Under the pieces are notes generated by a model. That model saw only the letters and a list, made by a program, of their open reading frames with translations. It ran no database searches and was not told where the DNA came from. From contig VBBS01000027.1 in assembly GCA_005888745.1 (NCBI GenBank), positions 55,045-119,044 on the forward strand: DNA of 64,000 nt, given 5' to 3'. This DNA comes from Candidatus Bathyarchaeota archaeon. Lineage in GTDB: Archaea; Thermoproteota; Bathyarchaeia; 40CM-2-53-6. The position numbers and the translations under genes are program-made. This document shows positions 38,540-51,509 of the stretch, piece after piece (within the stretch, counting starts at the first letter, position 1; each line of letters begins with the position of its first letter).

Positions 38540-40552
38540 CTAGCTCCCAGCTATGGCCGCCAACCCCGTGAGCAATGCCCCCCGGAGTCGGCTAGATAAG
38601 CCTTGTCCGAAATCAGGCCTAGAAGCATACGCGGGCGGTGCTTCAACCGGATGGTAATATTGCGACGCTGGCTCGCGCCTTCGCCTTGATACTAGAGCTA
38701 TCAGAACTACGAGGAACAAGAGGGCTAACCCCGCAATGAGGTAGATGAAGGGAATCCCCACGACCTTCAGATTAGTCAGGTTTGGAATCCCATTTATCGT
38801 AACGGTCAAAGTGTTTTGCCCTGAGGCGAACCCGGGCTTCGAGGCCTGAACGGTGACAGTTGGGTTCGAGGCCTGGAGAGGCGTAGTGTAGACGGCCGTG
38901 TAGTTACCGTTACCGCCATCAGTTGGGCTTGAGAAGCTTCCACCAGCCGAGGATGAGAGAAAGATCGTGGCCCCTGTTACGGGGCTGGTTCCGTTTGTGA
39001 CTCGAATCATCAGGACAATCTCACCTCCCGGAGTGATCGAAGCAACGCTAGGAACGGCAGCTACGGTCAAAGGCGGAAACGGATTCAGAGTGATCGTCGT
39101 CAGAGCAGATCCACTTATGAAACCATTTTCACTCGCAATTACCTGAATTATCGAGCTGACAAGAGAGTTCACAAGCGGTGCTGTGAAATTGGACGAATAT
39201 ACACCGATGCTGCCCATGATAGGTTGAGTGAACCCGCCGCCAGCCGATGAGCTAAGAGCAAGAGTCACACCGGCCTGAGGAGTCGACCCATTCGTAACCG
39301 TGATGGTCAGAATCGAAACCTGTCCAGGCTTCAAGCTCGTCACGCTTGGAAATATCGTCGCCTGCAACCTAGGTGCGATTACGCCCAACGCGTAGACCTT
39401 CGTATCCCATGACCCGAAGAAGGCCCTAGAATCCGCGATGGCAGGGGACGAAGATATGCCGGCACCAGTCGTGTACTTCCAGAGCAAAGCCCCCCCAGTC
39501 GCGTTCAGCGCGTAAATGCTGTGGTCACTCGAGCCGAACAGTAGAGTATTCGAGCCGAGCGCCAGGGCTGGAGAAGATGAAATTCCCCCGATCGTACCTG
39601 CTTTGGGATACGTCCAGAGCTGGGCACCGGTCGTGGCGTTGAGCGCGTATAGAATGCCTCTGCCTGTTCCAAAATAAACTGCTCCATTGCTGACCGCTGC
39701 AGAAGTAGCGTTGAATGCTCCGATGTTGAACGTCCAGATAATGGCACCAGAAGTCTGGTTCATCGCGAGAAACCTATTGCTGTCAGCTCCAACGTACACC
39801 CTACCGTAAGCAAGAGCTGGAGCCGTGCTTATCGACGCCGCCACTCCAATAGGAACCTTCCATAGCTGAACACCCGTGGTCTCGTTAACCGCAACAACAT
39901 AGCCATTGTTTTGTCCGAAGACAACTCGACCATTATTGACCGAGGGAGATGACTTGATCGTGTCATCTCCAACATACTGCCAGGCGACCGTGTTGTTTGT
40001 ATAGACTGCCAAGAGAACTGAGTTGAACCTGACAAACCAGGTTCCGTAGAAGATCTTCCCACCAGCATAGACTGGCGAGGATGTGATCGGACTGATGTTC
40101 GCCCTCTGCCAGATCACCGATCCTGTCTGCTCATTGAGAGCATAGACCATCGAGTTTCTTGAGGCGAGATAGACTACGCCGTTCGCGACTGCAGGTGTCG
40201 CGTAGATCGGAGCTGAAGTGCTGAAGACCCACCTCTGAGCCCCGTTGTACTCGTCGAGCGCGTAGAGGTTTCCATCCCAAGATGGGATCAAAACCAGCCC
40301 GTCAACAACGACGGGGGAGGGATACACGTAGGATCCAGTTGTGAAAGTCCACATGAGGTTTGGCCCACTGGGCGAGGATGCTGGAGTAGTTCCGGTTCTC
40401 AGAGCGTCGTGATGGAACATCGTCCAGGGATAATCTGTAGGACCCGGAGAAGCGGCGGGAAAATGTTGCGGAGTCGCTGGTGTTTTGCTAGCGGGTATTC
40501 CTATGCTGAGAAGGAAGAGGGAAAGGATCAGAATAACAACTGCCCATCTCAA
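38540..40552 (-). CDS. PQQ-repeat beta-propeller surface protein with C-terminal membrane anchor
   Basis: Signal peptide, multiple PQQ/BamB-like repeats (YALDxxTGxxLW pattern), Thr/Ser-rich Ig-like region, C-terminal TM helix plus basic cytoplasmic tail. Confidence 0.7.
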   Translation of the reverse strand: MRWAVVILILSLFLLSIGIPASKTPATPQHFPAASPGPTDYPWTMFHHDALRTGTTPASSPSGPNLMWTFTTGSYVYPSPVVVDGLVLIPSWDGNLYALDEYNGAQRWVFSTSAPIYATPAVANGVVYLASRNSMVYALNEQTGSVIWQRANISPITSSPVYAGGKIFYGTWFVRFNSVLLAVYTNNTVAWQYVGDDTIKSSPSVNNGRVVFGQNNGYVVAVNETTGVQLWKVPIGVAASISTAPALAYGRVYVGADSNRFLAMNQTSGAIIWTFNIGAFNATSAAVSNGAVYFGTGRGILYALNATTGAQLWTYPKAGTIGGISSSPALALGSNTLLFGSSDHSIYALNATGGALLWKYTTGAGISSSPAIADSRAFFGSWDTKVYALGVIAPRLQATIFPSVTSLKPGQVSILTITVTNGSTPQAGVTLALSSSAGGGFTQPIMGSIGVYSSNFTAPLVNSLVSSIIQVIASENGFISGSALTTITLNPFPPLTVAAVPSVASITPGGEIVLMIRVTNGTSPVTGATIFLSSSAGGSFSSPTDGGNGNYTAVYTTPLQASNPTVTVQASKPGFASGQNTLTVTINGIPNLTNLKVVGIPFIYLIAGLALLFLVVLIALVSRRRREPASQYYHPVEAPPAYASRPDFGQGLSSRLRGALLTGLAAIAGS

Positions 40553-40699
40553 TGGAATCCCCTAGCTGAACCCGAACACCTTGCTCCAAGAGAGATTTGG
40601 AGAATCCACAACTAAAGAGACATGTAACTCACGCTTCCACAATCGCGGATGCGACAATCGGAGCAAAGCCGAAAACTAGATTAATCTAGACACGGCACA

Positions 40700-41002
40700 A
40701 CGCCCGAACAAGGTGCAACCTGTCTGATATTCGCCTTCTTAATCTTCTACCGGGTTAGACCGCTGTCTGAGGCAGATAAGAAGAAAGCCACAGCCGACTG
40801 GGCACGGTTCAAGAAAACACTGTCCAAAGAACTCGCGATAGTAGCGGAGTACGCGCACATCTGGGGAACAACCTACAACGGCATGATCCTCGTCGAGTCA
40901 CGTGACCTCTCCACATTCCACGACTTCTGGCACCGTTTCCGCGAAACTACAAGATGGTACGTGCCAGAGACAAGAACATACATCGCCCAGAAAGAAGAAT
41001 AG
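40700..41002 (+). CDS. small alpha/beta protein (DUF3303-like), candidate ACG start
   Basis: Clean 100-codon frame (..LIFYRVRPLSEADKKKATADWARFKK...FHDFWHRFRETTRWYVPETRTYIAQKEE). It has no in-frame ATG, GTG or TTG before a downstream Met. There is an in-frame ACG at 40700. Confidence 0.35.
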   Translation, partial: TPEQGATCLIFAFLIFYRVRPLSEADKKKATADWARFKKTLSKELAIVAEYAHIWGTTYNGMILVESRDLSTFHDFWHRFRETTRWYVPETRTYIAQKEE

Positions 41003-41263
41003 GCCAGAACTATCCCGAGTATTTCGACTAGGCTCTATACCAAGAATTTCCGACACCCGCATCTCAGTGGGGCACTCAACTCTCCGTCGGATTAGGAGAG
41101 ATTGTGCCACTGTTCCGGAAGGATTCTTAGCTTCGGCACCTTTCTCTCTGTCTTTTGACTGGAAACGCGCTCACTTGCCAGGGGTCTGGCCAGTGAAAAC
41201 GGTCAATAGGAAAATTCGCCCCCTAAGCGACCTTCTAAGCCCGTAGCCCTAGGATGTTACGAA

Positions 41264-41956
41264 TTGCTCACCGAGTCGCAGTCAGAGATGCTTGGGATAC
41301 TGTTCGGAGATGGGTCGATGTCTGAGAATCACAACTCCGTTCAGATCGTCATAACCGGTCACAAATTCGATGACGTAGAGTACCTAATTGGCCGCGTAGG
41401 TCCGATGTTCGCGGAACTCTTTGAAATGCCCCTCAAGGTACATCTAGTGAAAGATGAAAATACGATGATCCTCTACGCTTACTCCAAACGAATTGCCCTG
41501 ACCCTTCACGAATGGGGAATGCCTTTTGGCCGAAAAAAACTGGCCTGGCTCACACCGCACGTCGCATTGGATGAAGTATCTTTCGTCAGAGGCTTATTCG
41601 ACACAGATGGCTGTGTCTATCGCAAGTATGGCCCTTATTTGCAAATCCAGTTTAAGTTCGCTTCCCTTTCGCTCCTTGAGTACGCGAGGGAGTGTCTGGT
41701 AAGACTCGGCCTGAATCCCACATCGATCAGGTGCGACGATACGAAGTTCAGGTTCTATCTCAGCAGACAAGCCGAGGTAGACCATTTCTTTAGGGTCGTA
41801 GAACCCAAGAACCCAAAGCATCTTAATCGTTTCCAAAATGCTTCTCGGAATCGGTCCTACCGCCCATACACACATCGTCCTGAAGCACTCAGAAGAATTG
41901 GAAACCAACCAAGCCTTATAGGACCAATTCTGTGGAAAACACACTCGGTGGGGTAA
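41264..41956 (+). CDS. free-standing double-motif LAGLIDADG homing endonuclease
   Basis: Motif 1 LGILFGDGSM and motif 2 VRGLFDTDGCVY. TTG start. Confidence 0.8.
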   Translation: MLTESQSEMLGILFGDGSMSENHNSVQIVITGHKFDDVEYLIGRVGPMFAELFEMPLKVHLVKDENTMILYAYSKRIALTLHEWGMPFGRKKLAWLTPHVALDEVSFVRGLFDTDGCVYRKYGPYLQIQFKFASLSLLEYARECLVRLGLNPTSIRCDDTKFRFYLSRQAEVDHFFRVVEPKNPKHLNRFQNASRNRSYRPYTHRPEALRRIGNQPSLIGPILWKTHSVG

Positions 41957-41982
41957 CTAAGGAAACCTTTCGACATAGGGCT

Positions 41983-42163
41983 TGGGGCCGTAGTCTAGCC
42001 AGACCCACTCCGGGTCCTAGTAAGGGACGACGACGGGCTCCAGAATCTATGAAACATGCACACCGACCAATATCGAGGGATGAGGAAATTCGGGAGCGCG
42101 TGAAGATACCCGTAGACGAGGGACTCGGCGGATGTCGTGGGTTCAAATCCCACCGGCCCCACC
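41983..42163 (+). tRNA. tRNA-like gene with ~100-nt insertion (putative intron) and genomically encoded CCA
   Basis: 3' end GTGGG-TTCAAAT-CCCAC-CGGCCCC-A-CCA gives a perfect T-arm plus 3' acceptor strand. The only complementary 5' acceptor strand (GGGGCCG) lies at 41983, followed by TA and GTCT-AGCC-AGAC. A 9-bp helix forms between 42009-42017 and 42119-42127. Anticodon not resolved. Confidence 0.45.
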
Positions 42164-42619
42164 AGTGTAGGGCAAATCGTCAGGGACTGGAAAGATCAGG
42201 ATCTCCTCAGCACAGACTTTGGGTCTAACCATGGCTCTTCAATCCGCCTTCGAGTCTGTTGAGGAATGAATCAATGTACTGCCGTGCGATCCCCCAATCA
42301 AAACGGCTGAGAGAGTCCGATCCGGCCCCGTGAGGACGCGTGTCGCATTGTCATCGATTCTAAGCTAGGTTCACGTAGAATGTCTCGGTCCACGTAAGCG
42401 AGTCCATGATGATTTTCAACTCAATACTGCCCGTTGTCTTGTCTGCTTTTGTGGCGTTCCATCTAGCATTCTGAACCACGAGCAGGAGTGCGTCCCAAAC
42501 CTTCTCAAAGGCGTGGGCAAATCTACCTTCTTTTCTAAAGGCAACTTCTCACATTGGGCCTGCAACCTGGCAATAAACTCACACCCCATCGTCTCCTCAA
42601 TGCTCGGGGCAAATTGAAC

Positions 42620-43081
42620 CTACTTCTCTGTTCGATGGAGATGTTTCGCGTCTAACGCCTTGGCGCGCTGTATTAGTTTGGCGTCAATTCCAGTAGTTAC
42701 TGCACTGCTCGAAAACCAGGAGTCGAGTATCTCTTTTGCGATGGCGGTCGAGGTGCTTCTGAGGCTCATAGCCAATACGTTGGCGTCGTCCCACATTCGA
42801 GCACCTTTCGCGGTTTCCGCGTCCCAGCACAAGGCGGCTCGGACCTCTCGGACCTTGTTGGCGGCAATCGTAACCCCGGTTCCAGTCCAACAGAACAGAA
42901 CACCCTGGTCCGCTCTCCCGCTGCTCACGTCTAGTCCTACTTTCTCTCCAACATCAGGCCAGCCCATCGCCTCTCCTTTCAAGGGACCAAAGAGGGTGAC
43001 AGTGTGACCCCTCTTCTTCAACTCCTCGACGACATAGTCTGTCAGAACAGTTTTCTCGTCGCTTCCAACAGCGATCTTCAA
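42620..43081 (-). CDS. rpiB: ribose-5-phosphate isomerase B (RpiB/LacAB family)
   Basis: MKIAVGSD N-terminus and family motifs (GTGVTIAANK). Confidence 0.85.
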   Translation of the reverse strand: MKIAVGSDEKTVLTDYVVEELKKRGHTVTLFGPLKGEAMGWPDVGEKVGLDVSSGRADQGVLFCWTGTGVTIAANKVREVRAALCWDAETAKGARMWDDANVLAMSLRSTSTAIAKEILDSWFSSSAVTTGIDAKLIQRAKALDAKHLHRTEK

Positions 43082-43170
43082 GTCTCGATCGAGAACCCCG
43101 TATACCTCAACATAGGTTTTGTGCCGGGAAAGCTAAAGTCTCTCTAGATCACGCTGTGAACTGACACATC

Positions 43171-43665
43171 TTGAGTAGGCCTTCAAAGCAGGTAAGCACT
43201 TCCAAGACCACTCTCTCCAGTCAGATGATGCCTGTGGACGCCAATCCGATGGGAAACGTGCACGGGGGCACAATTCTCAAACTTGTCGATGTCGCCGCCG
43301 GAGTCACGGCCCTGCGACATGCGAGAACTATTGTGGTCACCGCAAGCATCGACCGTATGGACTTTTACCATCCAGTCTATGTCGGCAACCTTCTCAACTT
43401 CAAGGCCTCAGTCAACTACGCTGGAACAACCTCGATGGAAGTCGGAGTAAGGATAGAAGCTGAGGACCTGAAGACTGGTAGAATAACACACACCGGCTCA
43501 TCCTACCTCACCTATGTTGCTATAGATGAGAACGGACAACCAGTCGAGATTCCCGACGTCATCCCGGAGACACTTGACGAAAAACGACGCTGGAGAGAAG
43601 GAAAAAAGCGAAGGGCCGAACGCCTCAAGATCCTACAAGATCGAAGGAGCAAGGGCAAGGCCTAG
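43171..43665 (+). CDS. acyl-CoA thioesterase (hotdog fold, YciA/PaaI-like)
   Basis: MPVDANPMGNVHGGTILKLVD hotdog signature. TTG start, with an internal ATG at 43225 also possible. Confidence 0.8.
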   Translation: MSRPSKQVSTSKTTLSSQMMPVDANPMGNVHGGTILKLVDVAAGVTALRHARTIVVTASIDRMDFYHPVYVGNLLNFKASVNYAGTTSMEVGVRIEAEDLKTGRITHTGSSYLTYVAIDENGQPVEIPDVIPETLDEKRRWREGKKRRAERLKILQDRRSKGKA

Positions 43666-43677
43666 GGTCGACAAAGA

Positions 43678-44562
43678 ACGAAAGTCGCAATTGTAGGGTT
43701 CGGCATGATGGGCCGGCAGATAGCCCAAGTATTCGCCCAAAATGGCCACGAGGTCGAGGCCACGGATGAGGATCAGCAAGCACTGAAGGCGGGGCTCAAC
43801 GAAATAGCAGACGGGCCCTACGGATTGCACGCGGCTGTTTCAAAAGGAAAACTGGCTGCAGAGCAAGCTCACAGGACTCTAGCAGCCATCAAGACAAGAC
43901 CCGAGCTAGCGGATGTTTGCAAGAACTCGACTCTTGTGATCGAGGCAGCCTTCGAGGAGCTGCAACTCAAACAGAATCTGTTTCACAGAATTGAATCTGC
44001 TGCGCCACCAACTGCGATCATAGCATCAAACACTTCAACCTTGAGCCTGGACAAGATCACCCAAAGAATCTCAAGGAAGGACAGAACGATTGGAATGCAC
44101 TTCTTTAATCCAGCCCAGCTCACAAAACTCGTCGAGATCGTCCGAGGAACGTCGACATCACCTGAAACACTAGAGAAAGCGTCCCAAATCGTCCGGGAGA
44201 TCGGTAAGACCCCTATCCTCGCCCAAGATGAGCCTGGTTTCATCGCCAACCGTCTCGGACTCACCCTCTACATGGAGGCTTCAAGACTGCTAGAGGATCG
44301 TGTCGCAAGTCTCTCTGACATCGACACGTGCATGAGACTCGGATACAACCATCCAATGGGACCCTTCGAACTAGCCGACTTCGTCGGACTTGACACCAGA
44401 CTTCGGAATCTAGAATCACTCTACAAGTCAACGAATGAAAGTAAATGGATACCACCTCAGATTCTAAGAGAGATGGTCCAACAAGGATACCTCGGCGACC
44501 CTGCTAGAAAGAAGACGAGCAAGGGCGGATACTACGAGTATCTCCGGATAAAGCGAGGATAA
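43678..44562 (+). CDS. hbd: 3-hydroxyacyl-CoA dehydrogenase
   Basis: Rossmann motif VAIVGFGMMG plus C-terminal HAD domain. The ORF-track start ATG 43705 cuts through GxGxxG. The frame is open back to the stop at 43663, and the only start-like codon there is ACG 43678. Confidence 0.85.
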   Translation, partial: TKVAIVGFGMMGRQIAQVFAQNGHEVEATDEDQQALKAGLNEIADGPYGLHAAVSKGKLAAEQAHRTLAAIKTRPELADVCKNSTLVIEAAFEELQLKQNLFHRIESAAPPTAIIASNTSTLSLDKITQRISRKDRTIGMHFFNPAQLTKLVEIVRGTSTSPETLEKASQIVREIGKTPILAQDEPGFIANRLGLTLYMEASRLLEDRVASLSDIDTCMRLGYNHPMGPFELADFVGLDTRLRNLESLYKSTNESKWIPPQILREMVQQGYLGDPARKKTSKGGYYEYLRIKRG

Positions 44563-45019
44563 GAAAATCCCAACCCTTTATACAGAACATAAGCCGTGTC
44601 AACTCCACTGGTTGTTATTTGGTGTGTTAACTTCGTTCGTCTCCAGCCGTTACCTTCGAAGTATGACTCTTCACATGTTAGGCGGTCGTCGCATGAACCT
44701 GTCACGTTGGGATGAGGGGGATGACTCCGATCAGGTGACGGGTCAGAAATGGGATAGCCGGTTGGCTGGCCACCGTAAAATCCTTGCTTGGCAATCGGCC
44801 AAGTTACCACGCTATGGGCGTGAGGGGGCGGTTGAGGTTCGACCGTTCCCTGCCAAAAAGAGACTACATGTCTCTGAGGCGCAAGGGCTCGCAGGTGAAG
44901 CAGTGAAGAGGAACCCGCCGACGACGGTAATCCTCCGAGCAGATGAGAGCAAGTCTAGTCCCCCAGCAACGGAAGACTCGACAGAACCCAGAACACAACC
45001 CACAAACCATCGATGATGA

Positions 45020-45793
45020 TTGCTGTACACACACATTCTAGTTGAGACTGAGCCGCCTATCGGAATCATCCGACTGAACCGTCCGAAAGCTCTCAACGCC
45101 CTCAACTTCGAACTTATCCAAGAAACAGTGGAGGCACTCGAAGGCTTCGACAAAGACGACAGGATCAAAGCGACGATCTTGACAGGGGGAGACGACGCCT
45201 TCTCTGCTGGAGCAGACATCAAGGAACTAGCGGAAGCGACTCCTGTCACCTTGATCGAGGAGAACAAGTTCGCCCTCTGGGATCGCTTGAAGAAGATCGC
45301 AAAGCCGATCATAGGAGCGGTCAGCGGCTACATCTACGGAGGAGGATGCGAACTGGCAATGAATTGCGATATCATCATTGCATCCGAGACCGCACGATTC
45401 GCACAGCCTGAAATCAACATCGGAATAATGCCCGGAGCTGGCGGGACACAGCGTCTCACAAGAACCATCGGAAAGTATAGGACAATGGAGATGGTTCTAA
45501 CCGGACAACCCATGACCGCGCGAGAGATGGAGAAACACGGTCTCGTCAACAGAATCGTCCCCGTCGAGGCCTACTTCGATGAGGCACGCAAACTCGCCAT
45601 GCAAATCGCCCAGAAAGCCCCCATAGCCACACGGCTAGCGAAAGAGGCGGTGCTGAAAGCTCTCGACACACCGCTCGAGGAAGGGCTACAATTCGAGAGG
45701 AAGAATTTCTACCTCCTCTTCTCAACAGAGGACATGAAAGAGGGAATGAAAGCCTTCACGGAAAAACGGCCCCCCAGATTCAAAGGACGATAG
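45020..45793 (+). CDS. enoyl-CoA hydratase (crotonase)
   Basis: Crotonase motifs (ITLNRP-like IIRLNRPKALNAL, AVSGYIYGGGCELAMNCD). TTG start. Confidence 0.9.
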   Translation: MLYTHILVETEPPIGIIRLNRPKALNALNFELIQETVEALEGFDKDDRIKATILTGGDDAFSAGADIKELAEATPVTLIEENKFALWDRLKKIAKPIIGAVSGYIYGGGCELAMNCDIIIASETARFAQPEINIGIMPGAGGTQRLTRTIGKYRTMEMVLTGQPMTAREMEKHGLVNRIVPVEAYFDEARKLAMQIAQKAPIATRLAKEAVLKALDTPLEEGLQFERKNFYLLFSTEDMKEGMKAFTEKRPPRFKGR

Positions 45794-45796
45794 TTC

Positions 45797-46591
45797 TTGG
45801 CACCTGAAACACTCATCGTCGAAGAACACGACCACATCACAAAGATCACACTGAACAGGCCGAGCGCCCTAAATGCGATAAACGACAAGATGGGCGAAGA
45901 ACTACTCGCGACTCTCAAAGAGACAGAGAAGAGCGACACTACCAGATGTCTTGTCATAACAGGGGCAGGAAGAGCTTTCTCAGCAGGAGAAGACATATCA
46001 GCTCTGAAAGACCGCTCTGGGACAGGAGACCATCCCTCACTCGGGGATCATCTCCGGAAGAAGTATCATCCAATCATAACCCGGATCCGAAACATCGAGA
46101 AACCAGTAATCGCCCGTCTGAACGGCATAGCAGCCGGAAGCGGGGCAAGCTTGGCCCTCGCCTGCGACATCCGAGTAGCCTCAGAGGAGGCGGGCCTCAA
46201 ACAGGCCTTCATCGGGGTAGGCTTGATACCGGATTCTGGAAGCAGCTACTTCCTAACACGAATGATCGGTCCCGGAAGGGCCCTCGAACTCATCATGACA
46301 GGAAAAACAATACCAGCGAAAGAAGCTGAACAACTTGGCCTCATCAACAAAGTCGTCCCCGCCGCCGAGCTTGACAAGCATACAGACGAGCTTGCCCATC
46401 AGCTCGCAACCGGCCCGACCAAAGCACTAGGACTCTCCAAGCGAATCGTGAACAAAGTCATAAGCCTCGAACTTCCAGAAGCCCTGGAGTATGAAGCCTA
46501 CAACCAGGACATCGCTGGACGAACCAGCGACCATCTAGAAGCCGTCAAAGCCTTTCTAGAAAAACGACAGCCGAAGTTCTTAGGGAAATGA
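45797..46591 (+). CDS. enoyl-CoA hydratase/isomerase family protein
   Basis: Second crotonase (ITLNRPSALNAI, LNGIAAGSGASLALACD). TTG start 3 nt after the preceding stop. Confidence 0.9.
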   Translation: MAPETLIVEEHDHITKITLNRPSALNAINDKMGEELLATLKETEKSDTTRCLVITGAGRAFSAGEDISALKDRSGTGDHPSLGDHLRKKYHPIITRIRNIEKPVIARLNGIAAGSGASLALACDIRVASEEAGLKQAFIGVGLIPDSGSSYFLTRMIGPGRALELIMTGKTIPAKEAEQLGLINKVVPAAELDKHTDELAHQLATGPTKALGLSKRIVNKVISLELPEALEYEAYNQDIAGRTSDHLEAVKAFLEKRQPKFLGK

Positions 46592-46658
46592 GACACGGTG
46601 TGTTTTCCAGGTTTCACGTTTAAGTAACAAGCTCCTCAATCGCGAGAGTTGAATAACC

Positions 46659-47660
46659 GTGCCGGGAAGGAACAAGAAACGGCCGAAATTGGACCTCAAC
46701 ATCTTCCCCGGAAACTGGACTGTCACGAATGACCGGATGTTCAAGGCCTTCGACCTGTCCTTCGCCCAGAACTGGAACCCTGCTACTTTTCCTTGGGATG
46801 AACTTGACCAGAAGAATTTCGACTCGAAGGAGAGAATAGCGCAAGCCTACTGGATGTCCAAACTGGCTCTCTTCGAGAAATCTGGAATTGGAGCCTTCGG
46901 CTTTGGGGCCGTAAGAGCCGCAGAACTGAACATGGAAGACCCCACGAAGAAGATGCTTGCCTCCATCACATACGATGAATGCCGGCATGACGAAGTCTGC
47001 CGAAGAGCCTGCGACAAGCTCTGTCCCAACTGGCCATACGGATACAAGCCACAATCAGATTTCGAATCAAGGGCCCTCCGAAACATCAAGGCACTCTACG
47101 ATGACGGCAGACGCTACTGGGAAGGATTCCTAAAGGCGTGGGAATATTTGCCGCCTGAGATTCTGTTCGCTGGCTTCTTTTTTGCGGAAATAGGCGCAGA
47201 AACGATCTTCAACGCGATGCGCCAGACCAGCAAACTCGGAATCTACCAACAAACCTTCCGAAATATTACACGAGACGAGACTCGCCATCTCGTTGCGACA
47301 ATGGCCCTGCTCCGGGCCATGGCCGAGAAGTTCTCGGAGGAACAGAAGATGACTATTACCCGGCAGATGAAGCAGGGCTTCATCTTTCTCTCACCCCTCC
47401 TCTACCAGCACAAGCCCGAGTTCTGGCATCTCCCCGCAGACTTTGACAAGGTCGACCAGGAGATGGAGGAAGCGGCCAGGGACGCGGGACTGGGAGTGCT
47501 CACCCTTGAAGAGAAGGTGAAGTTCTGGAAGGAAGCGATTGAGAAGAAACGGTCCGAGATAGAAGAGATGGGAATCAAGGTACCCGCCATCCCAGAGCTG
47601 GGAGTTGAGGGCGAAGAGGTTCAGGTTAAGAAGAACGAGACTATAGCCACGAGCTTCTAG
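46659..47660 (+). CDS. ferritin-like diiron-carboxylate oxygenase (PaaA/BoxB/acyl-desaturase-like)
   Basis: Two ExxH motifs (YDECRHDEV, TRDETRHLV) in a helical context. GTG start. Confidence 0.65.
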   Translation: MPGRNKKRPKLDLNIFPGNWTVTNDRMFKAFDLSFAQNWNPATFPWDELDQKNFDSKERIAQAYWMSKLALFEKSGIGAFGFGAVRAAELNMEDPTKKMLASITYDECRHDEVCRRACDKLCPNWPYGYKPQSDFESRALRNIKALYDDGRRYWEGFLKAWEYLPPEILFAGFFFAEIGAETIFNAMRQTSKLGIYQQTFRNITRDETRHLVATMALLRAMAEKFSEEQKMTITRQMKQGFIFLSPLLYQHKPEFWHLPADFDKVDQEMEEAARDAGLGVLTLEEKVKFWKEAIEKKRSEIEEMGIKVPAIPELGVEGEEVQVKKNETIATSF

Positions 47661-47667
47661 GAAGTGG

Positions 47668-47985
47668 TTGAAGATCACGAAGATCATAGTCCTGTTCGGA
47701 CAACCGAAAGACCCCGAACTATTCGATGAGCAATACTGGAAAGACCATGTTCCAATAGCGAAGGCGATGCCAGGTTTGAAGAAATACACAGTTCACAAGA
47801 TCGTTGGGGCACCACGAGGAGAACCGGCATACTACCAGGTTGTCGAACTGGAATTCGAGAATATGGACAGCCTGAAGAAAGCATTGGAAAGCCCGGCCGG
47901 ACGCGAATCAGGCCGGCACGGCGTAAAGATTGCTACTGGTGGCATAACTTTCCTTTACGCGGAATCAAGAGAAGCGATGCCGTAG
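47668..47985 (+). CDS. EthD/Dabb-family small alpha-beta barrel protein
   Basis: KIIVLFGQPKDPELFDEQYWKDHVPIA N-terminal pattern of the EthD family. TTG start. Confidence 0.55.
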   Translation: MKITKIIVLFGQPKDPELFDEQYWKDHVPIAKAMPGLKKYTVHKIVGAPRGEPAYYQVVELEFENMDSLKKALESPAGRESGRHGVKIATGGITFLYAESREAMP

Positions 47986-48077
47986 AACAACAACAGTCTA
48001 GCCCGGTTCCATCTGACATATTCCTCGGAAAACGTTCTTCTAATCAGACCCGTCAGTTCTAGGACAGGAGCGGGGAA

Positions 48078-49235
48078 GTCTTAGGCCGCATCGGAATCGT
48101 TGGAGTTGGACATTCAAAGTTCGGAAAAAGGAGCGACGCCTCCCTCCGAGAGCTAGCATTCGAAGCGTACAGTTCCGCCCTAGATGACGCCGACATCGAC
48201 TCTTCAAAAATAGACGGTTCAATAGTTTGCTCCGCCACTCACTACGACAAGCAACGATCGCCTGCAGGTGTTGTTGCGGAATATCTCGGACTCAATCCCC
48301 AACCAACATTCAACGTTGAGGCAGCCTGCGCCTCCAGCGCTGTTGGCCTTCGGACCGCGTGGGCGCTTGTCTCATCAAAACTTCATGATGTGGTGGCCGT
48401 TGTGGGGGTGCAGAAGATGACCGAACTCTCCTCGGAGGAGATCCAGGAGCTCATGGGCAGAGCAGGGGACGTCATGTGGGAGTCTCCCTTCGGAACAACA
48501 ATGCCCGCATACTACGCCTCCTATGCTAACGCCCACATGGCCAAGTACGGAACTACAGAGGAACAAATGGCGCTCGTGTCGGTGAAGAACCGAAAATACG
48601 GATCCAAGAATCCTAACGCCATGTTTCAAAAACCCATCCAATTGGAAGAGGTCCTAAAATCGCGAATGGTATCTTATCCTCTAAAACTATACGATTGCTG
48701 CGCCAATGCTGACGGGGCGGCATGTCTGCTCATTACTAGTGCCGAAAAAGCAAAGAAAATTTCTGATAGACCCGTATGGATCTCCGGGCTTGGCCTGGCT
48801 TCGAGTCCCATGTCGCTTGCTGGAAGAAAAGGTCCATTGACGAGTTTCGATGCCACAAGAAATGCGGCGAGAACGGCATACGAAATGGCCAATATCAAAC
48901 CACACGACGTACATGTGGCGGAGGTTCATGACTCTTTCTCGGTAACAGAAATCATCAATTATGAAGACCTCGGATTCGCACGACCTGGAAGGGGTGCTAA
49001 GCTTCTGGAAAACCAAGGCACGGAGCTCGGCGGGAGAATCCCCGTCAACATCGACGGAGGCTTGATTTCCAAAGGCCATCCAGTCGGAGCCACAGGCGCG
49101 TCCCAGATCTTCGCATTGGTCAAACAACTACGGGGGGAAGCGGGTAGCGTTCAGGTCGACGGCGCTAAGATTGGTCTCGCACAGAACATAGGGGGAATAG
49201 GAATGTACTGCTCCGTTACGATCTTGCGCTCATGA
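48078..49235 (+). CDS. thiolase (SCP-x-type acetyl-CoA C-acyltransferase)
   Basis: Thiolase N-terminal domain (GRIGIVGVGHSKFG...AACASSAVGL active Cys) is in frame with the called ORF 48390..49235. The frame opens at 48063, and there is no ATG, GTG or TTG before 48390. Start position uncertain. Confidence 0.75.
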   Translation, partial: VLGRIGIVGVGHSKFGKRSDASLRELAFEAYSSALDDADIDSSKIDGSIVCSATHYDKQRSPAGVVAEYLGLNPQPTFNVEAACASSAVGLRTAWALVSSKLHDVVAVVGVQKMTELSSEEIQELMGRAGDVMWESPFGTTMPAYYASYANAHMAKYGTTEEQMALVSVKNRKYGSKNPNAMFQKPIQLEEVLKSRMVSYPLKLYDCCANADGAACLLITSAEKAKKISDRPVWISGLGLASSPMSLAGRKGPLTSFDATRNAARTAYEMANIKPHDVHVAEVHDSFSVTEIINYEDLGFARPGRGAKLLENQGTELGGRIPVNIDGGLISKGHPVGATGASQIFALVKQLRGEAGSVQVDGAKIGLAQNIGGIGMYCSVTILRS

Positions 49236-49281
49236 GTACATTCTCCAAGCTCTATGACGAAAAGCGAGGGCGAATCTAGGA

Positions 49282-50208
49282 TTGCAGGTGGACATTCAAG
49301 AGTTGACCCCCATTCAAAGCTTCGGCAGAAGAATTCGAGCCTATGATAAAGCCACACGCCTCGCAAAGGAAGGTCGCCCTGTCACTGAAATCTCGAAAGA
49401 GACGGGAACGCCTGACGCTACCATCAGGGGATGGCTCGTAAACGGTCGAAAACCTTGGACCCGCTGCGAACTCTTCAAACCAACGTACTCTGATCAATTA
49501 ACATATGTTATCGGTGTTTACATGGGAGACGGCTCGATTTCCCGATGGAGAAATCGTTTTTTACTGCGATTAGATGTCAAAGACAAAGAATTCGCCGATA
49601 AGTTTTCTTCAACATGCGCACATGTTCTGGGTAGGAAACCATATTCTGTGAGGCATGTCAGGGATAGGGACACATACGAGACTATCATTTCAAACGCGTC
49701 TTTCTGCAAGTTCCTCAACCGAGGCCTCACCCACCTGGATCGGTATGTACGGGAGCATCCCTCTGGCTTTGTTAGAGGTTTAGCTGATAGCGATGAGTGC
49801 CCCACTGTGACAACAACAAAAAAGCGGGGCAAACCCTGGTTCTTCGTCCAAGTTGTAGTAGCAACATCCAAGAGCATACGCTTACTGAGCTATACTCGGA
49901 CGATCCTGAGGGAATGCCTCGGACTCAAAGCGACGCTAGTGTACAAAGGCAAGCCAAGACCCAGTGTGTTCAAGAACAAGTTGCTCCGTTCAAGAAAGAG
50001 GGTCTTTGACCTTAGGATATCGCGCTTTGGTGACGTGAAACGATTCTCCCGGGTTGTTGGTTTCGAATTGGCTCGGAAACAAGAGAAGCTTGCCGCTGCT
50101 ATCTTCGTCCGTGAAGGATTTGGTTCTGGTCAGGATGCGGTGAAAGAGTGGACCCGTCGCTGGGAGCATGGCACCACTGAGTGGATTCTCAAGAAAGGAG
50201 TGGACTAG
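49282..50208 (+). CDS. free-standing LAGLIDADG homing endonuclease with N-terminal HTH
   Basis: Motif 1 YVIGVYMGDGSI and motif 2 FVRGLADSDECP. TTG start. Lies between the thiolase and DUF35 genes. Confidence 0.8.
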   Translation: MQVDIQELTPIQSFGRRIRAYDKATRLAKEGRPVTEISKETGTPDATIRGWLVNGRKPWTRCELFKPTYSDQLTYVIGVYMGDGSISRWRNRFLLRLDVKDKEFADKFSSTCAHVLGRKPYSVRHVRDRDTYETIISNASFCKFLNRGLTHLDRYVREHPSGFVRGLADSDECPTVTTTKKRGKPWFFVQVVVATSKSIRLLSYTRTILRECLGLKATLVYKGKPRPSVFKNKLLRSRKRVFDLRISRFGDVKRFSRVVGFELARKQEKLAAAIFVREGFGSGQDAVKEWTRRWEHGTTEWILKKGVD

Positions 50209-50211
50209 GCA

Positions 50212-50620
50212 ATTGGGTTTTGAAAAGTTCGGGAGATTTGGTTATGTCTCCCAGACCAAGATCAACCCCTTGTTATCCTATCTGGAAAAGGGGCAGATTG
50301 CCGCGACCAAGTGCAAGAAGTGCGGGAGAACGTACTTTCCACCAAGAGCCGAGTGCCTGGACTGCCGCCACAGTACGATAGAATGGGTTGTAGTGGACGG
50401 GAGGAGCAAACTGATCACATTCACCCAGGTTTTCTTCGCACCACCCGCCTTTCAGCACGAAACCCCGTACATGCTAGGACTTGCGGAACTCACGAATGGG
50501 CTTCGCGTATTCGCGCCTGTCAGTCCTGCAGTGGAAAAGGAGCAACTCAAACCGGGCGTCGAGCTGACCTTGAAGGTTGCAAAAGGCTCACGTGACAACT
50601 TGTACTACTGGCTCGAATGA
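50212..50620 (+). CDS. DUF35 OB-fold/zinc-ribbon protein (thiolase partner)
   Basis: CKKCGRTYFPPRAECLDC ribbon plus OB-fold. The ORF track starts at ATG 50168 inside the endonuclease gene. TTG 50212 with an upstream AAAGGAG gives the typical ~135-aa DUF35 length. Confidence 0.7.
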
Positions 50621-50645
50621 AGAACATGTGAATCGTCTTTCGGAG

Positions 50646-51509
50646 CTATTCGAGCCGCGGTAATCGGAGATCATCGCCCGCTGTTCGATAGCCGAGCTTG
50701 AGGGCCAATGGTGGGCGTCTCTTGTGCTCTGACTTCAACCAGCGTTCTCGAACTCTCCTGACTAGTGCCAGCTTCAAGCTCGTTTCATCCACTATCTCTT
50801 CTGGTGTCATCCATCTTTCAAGGCCCCAAAGAATCCTGTCCAGCTTCTCATAGCTGAGGCCTAATTCTTTCTCCGCTGTCTGACCTGGCCATAGCTCAGG
50901 GCTAGAAGCTTTCACGCGAATCCTCTCCGGTATGTTCAAGTGTCTGGCCAGGTTCCGGACTGATGTCTTGTAGAGATCTGCGAGGGGGAGTATGTCGCAG
51001 GCTCCATCGCCAAACTTTGTGAAGTAGCCTAGCATAATCTCACTCTTATCGCCAGTTCCCACGACGAGACCGTGCTCCGTGTTAGCATAATAGTAGAGGA
51101 CTATTGCGCGAAGCCGCGCCTTGACGTTTCCCCAAGGAATTCCCTTCGCGCTCTTTGCGTCTAGAGCGTTTCGAGAGGTTTTGACAATGGGCGTAATGTC
51201 AATTAGCTTGAAGCCTATTCTATGCTTCAACGCCACAAGTCTCGCATCTTCCACGGCCTGATCATTCCTCGTCTCATTCTCCGGCAGAGTTATCCCAAGA
51301 ACCCGCCTGCCCCCGACCGCGCGGGCGCATAGCGCCGCGGCAACACTAGAATCTAGACCACCAGACATGCCAAGGACGAGGCAGCGTGCACCGGCTTCTT
51401 CCAGGTGAGTCGTAAGAAATCGTTCAAGCCGACTTACTGTTTCCTCTGGGTCCCGAATGGCGAAAGGATCCTCGCCGTATCTAGAGGACATGGTGTCCTC
51501 GACTTTCAA
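50646..51509 (-). CDS. nadE: NH3-dependent NAD+ synthetase
   Basis: PP-loop SGGLDSS motif. Confidence 0.9.
   Translation of the reverse strand: MKVEDTMSSRYGEDPFAIRDPEETVSRLERFLTTHLEEAGARCLVLGMSGGLDSSVAAALCARAVGGRRVLGITLPENETRNDQAVEDARLVALKHRIGFKLIDITPIVKTSRNALDAKSAKGIPWGNVKARLRAIVLYYYANTEHGLVVGTGDKSEIMLGYFTKFGDGACDILPLADLYKTSVRNLARHLNIPERIRVKASSPELWPGQTAEKELGLSYEKLDRILWGLERWMTPEEIVDETSLKLALVRRVRERWLKSEHKRRPPLALKLGYRTAGDDLRLPRLE

Follow-up and report, generated by a model that had tools for sequence, protein, structure and literature searches.

Introduction

LAGLIDADG homing endonucleases are recognised by one or two motifs, each ending in a catalytic Asp or Glu residue, and make Mg2+-dependent, site-specific double-strand cuts with 4-nt 3' overhangs; homing endonuclease genes go through a cycle of invasion, decay and loss. 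To our knowledge, the archaeal LAGLIDADG enzymes come almost entirely from rRNA introns and inteins. Here, we describe a LAGLIDADG open reading frame (ORF) of 308 amino acids that stands free between the genes of a thiolase and of its DUF35 partner in a Candidatus Bathyarchaeota archaeon. It was found in a stretch of 64,000 nucleotides of contig VBBS01000027.1 (assembly GCA_005888745.1), which we call the window. We consider it likely that this ORF is a homing endonuclease gene of the free-standing kind, and that the promoter-less cassette to which it belongs, about 1 kb long, occupies one thiolase-DUF35 site in soil Bathyarchaeia. All window features given below lie on the forward (+) strand; L numbers designate retrieved loci and P numbers proteins.

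Among the described systems, the seg and mob genes of T4-like phages resemble the window cassette in being intergenic, promoter-less and located between conserved genes, in being co-transcribed, as the cassette presumably is, and in being present or absent between related genomes. In T4 intronless homing, the enzyme cuts at some distance from the insertion site, with co-conversion of flanking markers, sometimes over hundreds of base pairs (PMC2988022), which is paralleled here by a 650-nt thiolase tract and by mosaic loci. The seg and mob enzymes are of the GIY-YIG or HNH type and have a phage as host, whereas the window enzyme is of the LAGLIDADG type and is found in a metabolic operon of a cellular archaeal chromosome. 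A further difference from seg and mob is that the window cassette provides new last 8 codons for the gene upstream and a ribosome-binding site for the one downstream.

The two-motif architecture, the predicted fold and the acidic residues at motif position 8 of the window protein are common to the archaeal monomeric enzymes I-DmoI, I-Tsp061I and PI-PfuI. These are found in rRNA introns or inteins, whereas the window gene is free-standing; the identity with them is only 13-16%, and the window protein presents in addition a helix-turn-helix (HTH)-like N-terminal domain and a C-terminal helical extension. In the same way as in the window, LAGLIDADG ORFs of fungal and algal organelles lie outside introns and beside conserved genes. 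In fungal mitochondria, partial duplications of neighbouring genes are reported beside some free-standing LAGLIDADG ORFs and give pseudogene fragments (PMC7487136); the substituted end of the thiolase gene and the DUF35 fragment in the L024-type loci described below are parallel to these. The window gene differs from the organelle ORFs in its archaeal chromosomal setting, and no sequence relationship to them is detectable beyond the family motifs.

Outside its own clade, the nearest relatives of the window protein are uncharacterised proteins of Thermococcus pacificus and Pyrococcus sp. ST04 (P0033 and P0034, 28-32% identity). They exhibit, as in the window, an HTH-like N-terminus followed by two LAGLIDADG motifs, and their genes are intergenic and free-standing, but sit elsewhere, upstream of rps15 and downstream of IMPDH (L122, 4001-4915; L123, 4001-4825). 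These relatives suggest a wider class of free-standing archaeal LAGLIDADG genes. Free-standing homing endonuclease genes are already known; the archaeal chromosomal setting is little documented in the literature searched, in which no paper linking Bathyarchaeota and LAGLIDADG was found.

Occupied and empty thiolase-DUF35 junctions

In the window, the ORF listing and direct reading showed three co-oriented genes in one operon, namely the SCP-x/PRK06064-type thiolase (48081-49235), the LAGLIDADG ORF (49282-50208) and DUF35 (50213-50620). An earlier note, made from the DNA alone, had placed a 308-residue, double-motif LAGLIDADG enzyme between two genes that it described as normally adjacent. The coordinates and both motifs are confirmed, and in all of the 60+ archaeal and bacterial relatives retrieved without the ORF the thiolase gene is directly followed by DUF35, in agreement with that description. 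As distant archaea and bacteria all show the same adjacency, it is ancestral.

A protein search yielded 30 close homologs of the endonuclease, at 52-90% identity, the next best matches being the Thermococcales proteins. We fetched loci through the endonuclease protein (seven proteins in 12 loci, plus 29 metagenome loci). In all 44 fetched loci encoding the family, the gene lies directly upstream of DUF35, and the thiolase gene lies upstream of it wherever the contig reaches that far, on the same strand throughout. A scan of viral contigs for the family found none. Taken alone, this uniform synteny would point to a domesticated gene, the outcome that the earlier note had linked to relatives which all carry the ORF at this position. 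A second sampling by thiolase search, in which the occupancy of 80 loci was classified by tblastn, reverses the picture. Among 21 species-representative Bathyarchaeia with a thiolase at least 77% identical, 17 are empty, 3 are occupied and 1 is occupied by inference; occupied loci are over-sampled in the whole collection, many having been fetched through the endonuclease, and the unbiased occupancy is 4/21. The empty junction for which the earlier note had suggested to look in related genomes therefore exists in 17 of 21 close representatives, the metagenome-assembled genomes (MAGs) BA_3 (L016) and BA_4 (L032) included.

In the 16 empty representatives from which the junction consensus was drawn, the junction consists of the thiolase stop codon, 3-6 nt and the DUF35 start codon, as seen in the 80 bp of BA_3: CAGAACATCGGAGGAATAGGCATGTACGCCGCCGTGACGATCTTGAAGGCGTAGCCTGGTTGGGTTTCGAAAAGTTTGGCAG. 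In a tree of the gene for a conserved 333-residue protein located upstream, BA_3 and BA_4 are the nearest host relatives of the window, and each of the two host clades has occupied alleles interleaved with empty ones. This gene was taken in place of the thiolase because the 3' part of the window thiolase is itself foreign; the thiolase-based tree was dropped as a host tree. Occupied and empty hosts can be close, with a host synonymous divergence (dS) of 0.17-0.24 between occupied L094 and empty L016 and of 0.20-0.26 between occupied L101 and empty L029. One MAG, MNHO01 (archaeon 13_1_40CM_2_52_13), contains one empty locus (L023) plus one occupied locus (L024); two strains binned together or a duplication of the operon could explain this.

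Horizontal movement of the cassette

We compared the dS of the endonuclease gene with that of four host markers, the 333-residue protein gene, the 5' part of the thiolase gene, DUF35 and nadE. Between the window and L002, the endonuclease dS is 0.14-0.16 and the host dS 0.43-0.66; between L024 and L101, the values are 0.00-0.01 and 0.43-0.85. In this last pair, a tract of 98-100% identity extends from the last ~60 nt of the thiolase gene to the DUF35 start and coincides with the cassette. Across the host clades, L001 and L024 exhibit an endonuclease dS of 0.29-0.47 with 1.75 for the thiolase 3' part, the other host genes giving no finite estimate, and L014 and L101 a dS of 0.29-0.50 with 1.67 for the thiolase 3' part, 2.13 for DUF35 and no finite estimate for the others. 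The nucleotide identity of the cross-clade pairs is 86-88% in the endonuclease gene and 63-75% in host genes. A comparison by whole-gene dS (1.3-1.4 for the thiolase versus 0.14-0.21 for the endonuclease) was set aside as confounded, the 3' two-thirds of the window thiolase gene being a foreign allele. At the sequence level, these divergences demonstrate that the cassette moved horizontally between lineages.

Footprints of recombination around the cassette

The 3' part of the window thiolase gene (48575-49208), which abuts the cassette, appears in identity comparisons as a foreign allele, the alpha tract. Over these ~650 nt, the window is 61-77% identical to its near host relatives L016 and L032, compared to 85-93% elsewhere. 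The same tract is 88-100% identical to L009 and L109, and 76-85% identical to the otherwise distant L004 and L006, in which the identity of DUF35 is only 50-70%. The tract has the appearance of a product of co-conversion. In L112 both flanks of the cassette are mosaic. Co-conversion of the cassette flanks is found in these comparisons, and we infer its link to double-strand-break repair.

The endonuclease gene itself is recombinant, since its N-half and C-half give conflicting trees. Two types of copies, A and B, are distinguished below by their N-terminal part, and in L009, L107-L111, L112 and L114 a type B N-half is joined to a type A C-half.

Additionally, the L024-type loci (L024, L100-L102 and L121) carry debris after the endonuclease gene (6130-6378 in L024). 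It begins with a degraded DUF35 5' fragment of about 210 nt, of the type of the other host clade. This fragment is followed by a remnant of the recipient's thiolase end (GVTVLRA and stop) and then by the recipient's intact DUF35. On sequence grounds, this debris is a direct scar of arrival with donor flanking DNA. The endonuclease stop codon of L024 is mutated from TAG to TGG.

In L113, of which positions 1-1300 are a 99.6% identical variant of the L002 strain, the thiolase gene presents a 240-nt in-frame deletion ending 8 nt before the cassette edge, and the endonuclease gene a 1-nt frameshift. This may be a scar of repair or an artefact of the assembly.

The endonuclease protein

The 308-residue form of the protein starts at TTG 49282. 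Most homologs have 301 residues, the length that a start at TTG 49303 would give, and the two starts appear equally likely from the sequence. Pfam recognises the LAGLIDADG_3 family (PF14528) with E=2.7e-8 and 34.4 bits, above the gathering cut-off of 22.5, whereas an NCBIfam search of the ORF gave no match. The sequence profile of the family matches I-DmoI in the PDB with E=0.004.

Alignment of the homologs placed the first motif, YVIGVYMGDGSI, with the catalytic Asp83, at 49504-49539, and the second, FVRGLADSDE, with the catalytic Asp171, at 49768-49797. Both motifs, with the cores VIGVYMGDG and VRGLADSDE, are conserved across 27 homologs. Asp83 is nearly invariant, the GDG of the first motif is present in all copies, and both acidic residues stand at motif position 8. 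The residue that follows the second one is Glu172 in the window copy and in its near-identical twin L093, and Gly in at least 90% of homologs.

The AlphaFold model (predicted local distance difference test score, pLDDT, 84.7; predicted template modelling score, pTM, 0.75) exhibits an N-terminal helical bundle, two alpha/beta half-domains and C-terminal helices. In this predicted structure the half-domains form the pseudo-symmetric alpha-beta-beta-alpha-beta-beta-alpha fold of the LAGLIDADG family, and a Foldseek search with it returned PI-PfuI, I-DmoI and I-Tsp061I at 8e-9 to 2e-6 with a probability of 1.00. The motifs, the profile match and the modelled fold together show that the ORF belongs to the LAGLIDADG endonuclease family.

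As for the N-terminal HTH of the earlier note, a helical, HTH-like domain is predicted at 49309-49464, and the corresponding Pfam match, to HTH_28, is weak (E=0.0016). This domain is present in type A copies and is replaced by unrelated sequence in type B copies.

Edges and design of the cassette

The cassette extends from 49209 to 50212 (about 1004 nt) and stands in place of about 30-33 nt of the empty allele. In order, it comprises a substitute for the last 8 thiolase codons with their TGA, a spacer, the LAGLIDADG ORF and, within the end of this ORF, the ribosome-binding site of DUF35. The left edge was placed by the codons that track occupancy. The last eight thiolase codons follow occupancy and not the host lineage: the thiolase ends with GMY(S/A)(A/G)V(T/S)IL(K/R)A in empty alleles, with GMYCSVTILRS and TGA in occupied type A alleles and with GMYAS(V/I)VILRS and TGA in occupied type B alleles. 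Therefore, the cassette brings its own thiolase C-terminus (in the window CSVTILRS and TGA, 49209-49235, by comparison with empty alleles) and begins at about 49209, immediately after ATGTAC and ~24 nt before the thiolase stop. On the right, alignment between the two kinds of allele resumes at the DUF35 start codon, TTG 50213. The insertion that the earlier note had described as sitting precisely between the two genes is thus intergenic with respect to its ORF, but its foreign DNA starts inside the end of the thiolase gene.

The Shine-Dalgarno-like AAAGGAG (50195-50201) was located by direct reading within the last codons of the endonuclease ORF. Its spacing to TTG 50213 is comparable to that of the GAGGG or GAAGG found in the last thiolase codons of empty alleles. 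This TTG start, of a kind given as probable in the earlier note, aligns with a TTG, ATG or GTG start in every empty-site relative, and an upstream candidate, ATG 50168, was rejected. The cassette would thus be host-neutral by design, supplying both the thiolase end and the DUF35 ribosome-binding site. Preservation of the host operon, also proposed in the earlier note, is supported. In the pure type B loci L004 and L006, the start codon of DUF35 is lost. At the DUF35 start position (about 2019 in L004 and about 1757 in L006) these loci read ACC or ACA; the first canonical start lies 29 codons downstream, and the codons upstream of it are still conserved.

Between the thiolase end and the endonuclease lies a conserved spacer (49232-49279) with a 15-codon ORF, MSTFSKLYDEKRGRI and stop, whose ATG overlaps the thiolase stop (tcATGa). 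This short ORF may serve in translational coupling or attenuation. A role as a programmed frameshift or fusion signal was discarded, as the frame relation varies among loci, many of which contain stops. The endonuclease frame is open through the spacer region in L003 and L094, and protein P0008 of L024, with 340 residues, is an in-frame fusion of the short ORF with the endonuclease. We also considered the endonuclease tail, EWILKKGVD and stop, as a displaced thiolase end (VTILKA and stop); 10 of 15 nt are alike, which is not distinguishable from chance. A genuine displaced thiolase end is found only in the L024-type loci.

The GC content is 46-51% in the cassette and 50-55% in the flanks, and base composition gave no clear foreign signal in the cassette relative to them. 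No tRNA genes were found in a search near the cassette.

Selection on the endonuclease and decay of copies

The median pairwise ratio of nonsynonymous to synonymous divergence (dN/dS) is 0.19 for the endonuclease, indicating purifying selection, and 0.05 for the thiolase. Lesions are found in about 8 of 30 distinct endonuclease copies and comprise, among others, D171N, D171G, frameshifts and deletions. The second motif reads DSDE in the window and L093, DSGG in L096 and L097, and DSNG in L009 and L114; L104 and L113 are frameshifted, and L105 and L106 have deletions. In the most recent comparisons dN/dS is higher, at 0.37, 0.40 and 1.5. Maintained and decaying copies, together with clean empty sites, match the invasion-decay-loss cycle of homing endonuclease genes.

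Proposed mechanism and alternative explanations

The empty sites, the interleaved alleles, the low endonuclease dS and the conflicting trees of the two gene halves support a free-standing selfish LAGLIDADG insertion, as the earlier note had supposed. In the homing process that we propose, the enzyme would cut the empty junction, made of the thiolase end ...AACATCGGAGGAATAGGAATGTAC... and the DUF35 start TTGGGTTTCGAAAAGTTCGG, or maybe instead a nearby site in the thiolase 3' region. The break would be mended from an occupied allele acquired from another cell, and the cassette would be copied in along with variable lengths of flanking DNA. Once installed, it would be transcribed together with the operon, and DUF35 would be translated from the cassette-borne ribosome-binding site.

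Several points weigh against this reading. We infer both the endonuclease activity and the target sequence. The window copy is intact as an ORF but may be impaired by G172E, beside the second catalytic Asp. The insertion may not always be neutral, as the pure type B loci L004 and L006 are without a DUF35 start codon. The segment could in principle also be moved by general homologous recombination, with no part played by the enzyme. As every sequence comes from a metagenome contig or a MAG, some mosaics could be assembly chimeras, although the same patterns are seen again in many independent samples. Values of dS were estimated by the Nei-Gojobori method, many host comparisons giving no finite value, and the trees are simple neighbour-joining trees.

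A more specific version of homing, possible but rather doubtful in our view, is intronless homing of the T4 type, in which a cut inside the thiolase 3' region would drive the replacement of 0.6 kb of the thiolase gene (alpha and beta alleles) along with the cassette. If true, the element would direct gene flow and marker exclusion between diverged species of uncultivated soil archaea, the first such case in the chromosome of a cellular archaeon. It would also offer a new natural LAGLIDADG scaffold whose protein-coding target is defined.

We regard it as unlikely that the ORF is an inactive passenger, that is, an old insertion with a dead enzyme whose patchiness comes from ordinary homologous recombination, gene flow and loss to empty alleles. 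The mosaic state of the flanking host DNA, the active-site lesions of several copies, G172E of the window included, and the raised dN/dS of the most recent comparisons would all fit such a passenger. However, the tracts of low divergence have the cassette at their centre and end at its edges, and the cassette passed between host clades whose flanking genes are only 63-74% identical, a divergence which ordinary homologous recombination handles poorly. The long-term dN/dS of about 0.2 and the conservation of both catalytic Asp residues in most copies argue, in addition, for a maintained function.

A further alternative is a domesticated LAGLIDADG/HTH host protein, inherited vertically and lost in some lineages, which might bind DNA to regulate the beta-oxidation-like operon or assist the thiolase and DUF35. 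The constant position and strand in the operon, the purifying selection and the HTH-like domain are in line with it, and host proteins derived from LAGLIDADG folds have precedents, the WhiA structure being among the fold matches. We nevertheless hold domestication for very improbable: the ORF is absent from 17 of 21 close species representatives, the nearest ones included, and the endonuclease dS lies 3 to >40 times below the host-gene dS in several pairs. Moreover, most copies keep the catalytic Asp residues while scattered ones are frameshifted or deleted, and the HTH is dispensable, as it is missing from type B copies.

Finally, although archaeal LAGLIDADG enzymes usually reside in inteins or rRNA introns and the Joint Genome Institute (JGI) annotates some homologs as 'intein-encoded DNA endonuclease-like', we give almost no credence to another kind of element, since the Pfam scan of the ORF found only LAGLIDADG_3 and the weak HTH, with neither a Hint splicing domain nor a transposase domain, the position of the ORF is intergenic, past the thiolase stop, and its frame is not that of the thiolase, no Rfam family, introns included, reached its gathering score in 40000-51000, and the cassette ends have no terminal (inverted) repeats and no target-site duplication, which speaks in turn against an intein, an intron and a transposon or insertion sequence.

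For the homing endonuclease cassette, dozens of natural alleles, whether occupied, empty, mosaic or decayed, are public and constitute a natural experiment on the life cycle of an archaeal homing endonuclease. They provide evidence for such elements moving DNA between diverged Bathyarchaeia populations. The protein and its junction are a concrete candidate enzyme/target pair, possibly useful in meganuclease engineering. The cassette is also an example of neutrality in a tightly coupled gene pair, with a replacement 3' end upstream and a ribosome-binding site downstream.

Host genes and surroundings

The thiolase was identified by its match to NCBIfam PRK06064 at 9e-140, with Pfam Thiolase_N and Thiolase_C_1. 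Its reading frame is open from 48063 to the TGA at 49233-49235, and no ATG, GTG or TTG was found in 48063-48390. Alignment with relatives places its start at 48081-48083, where the window reads TTA and relatives have ATG, TTG or CTG (CTG in five close relatives). This TTA could mean non-canonical initiation or an impaired gene. It is also present in L093, a JGI contig of a separate assembly that is 99-100% identical to the window across the region. The DUF35 protein, the thiolase partner, presents a zinc ribbon and an OB fold (Pfam zf-ChsH2 and OB_ChsH2_C). It resembles BbsA, the DUF35 subunit of benzoylsuccinyl-CoA thiolase, and the gene pair is similar to BbsA/BbsB.

Around these genes, the operon encodes a 4HBT thioesterase, a 3-hydroxyacyl-CoA dehydrogenase, two enoyl-CoA hydratases, the conserved 333-residue protein and an EthD protein. 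The gene of the 333-residue protein (46659-47660) stands between those of the second enoyl-CoA hydratase and EthD in every related operon; the protein matches no Pfam family above threshold and exhibits a weak rubrerythrin-like stretch (E=0.0045).

A second free-standing, double-motif LAGLIDADG ORF of 230 residues (41264-41956; PF14528, E=6e-9) lies elsewhere in the window, between the gene of a large surface protein and rpiB. It has 87 homologs, mostly in Bathyarchaeia. For one of them, P0041, the longest contig listed has 30,644 nt, as does the L099 contig with its thiolase-site cassette, and the two may be the same. The ORF is 26% identical to the 308-residue one and unrelated to it.

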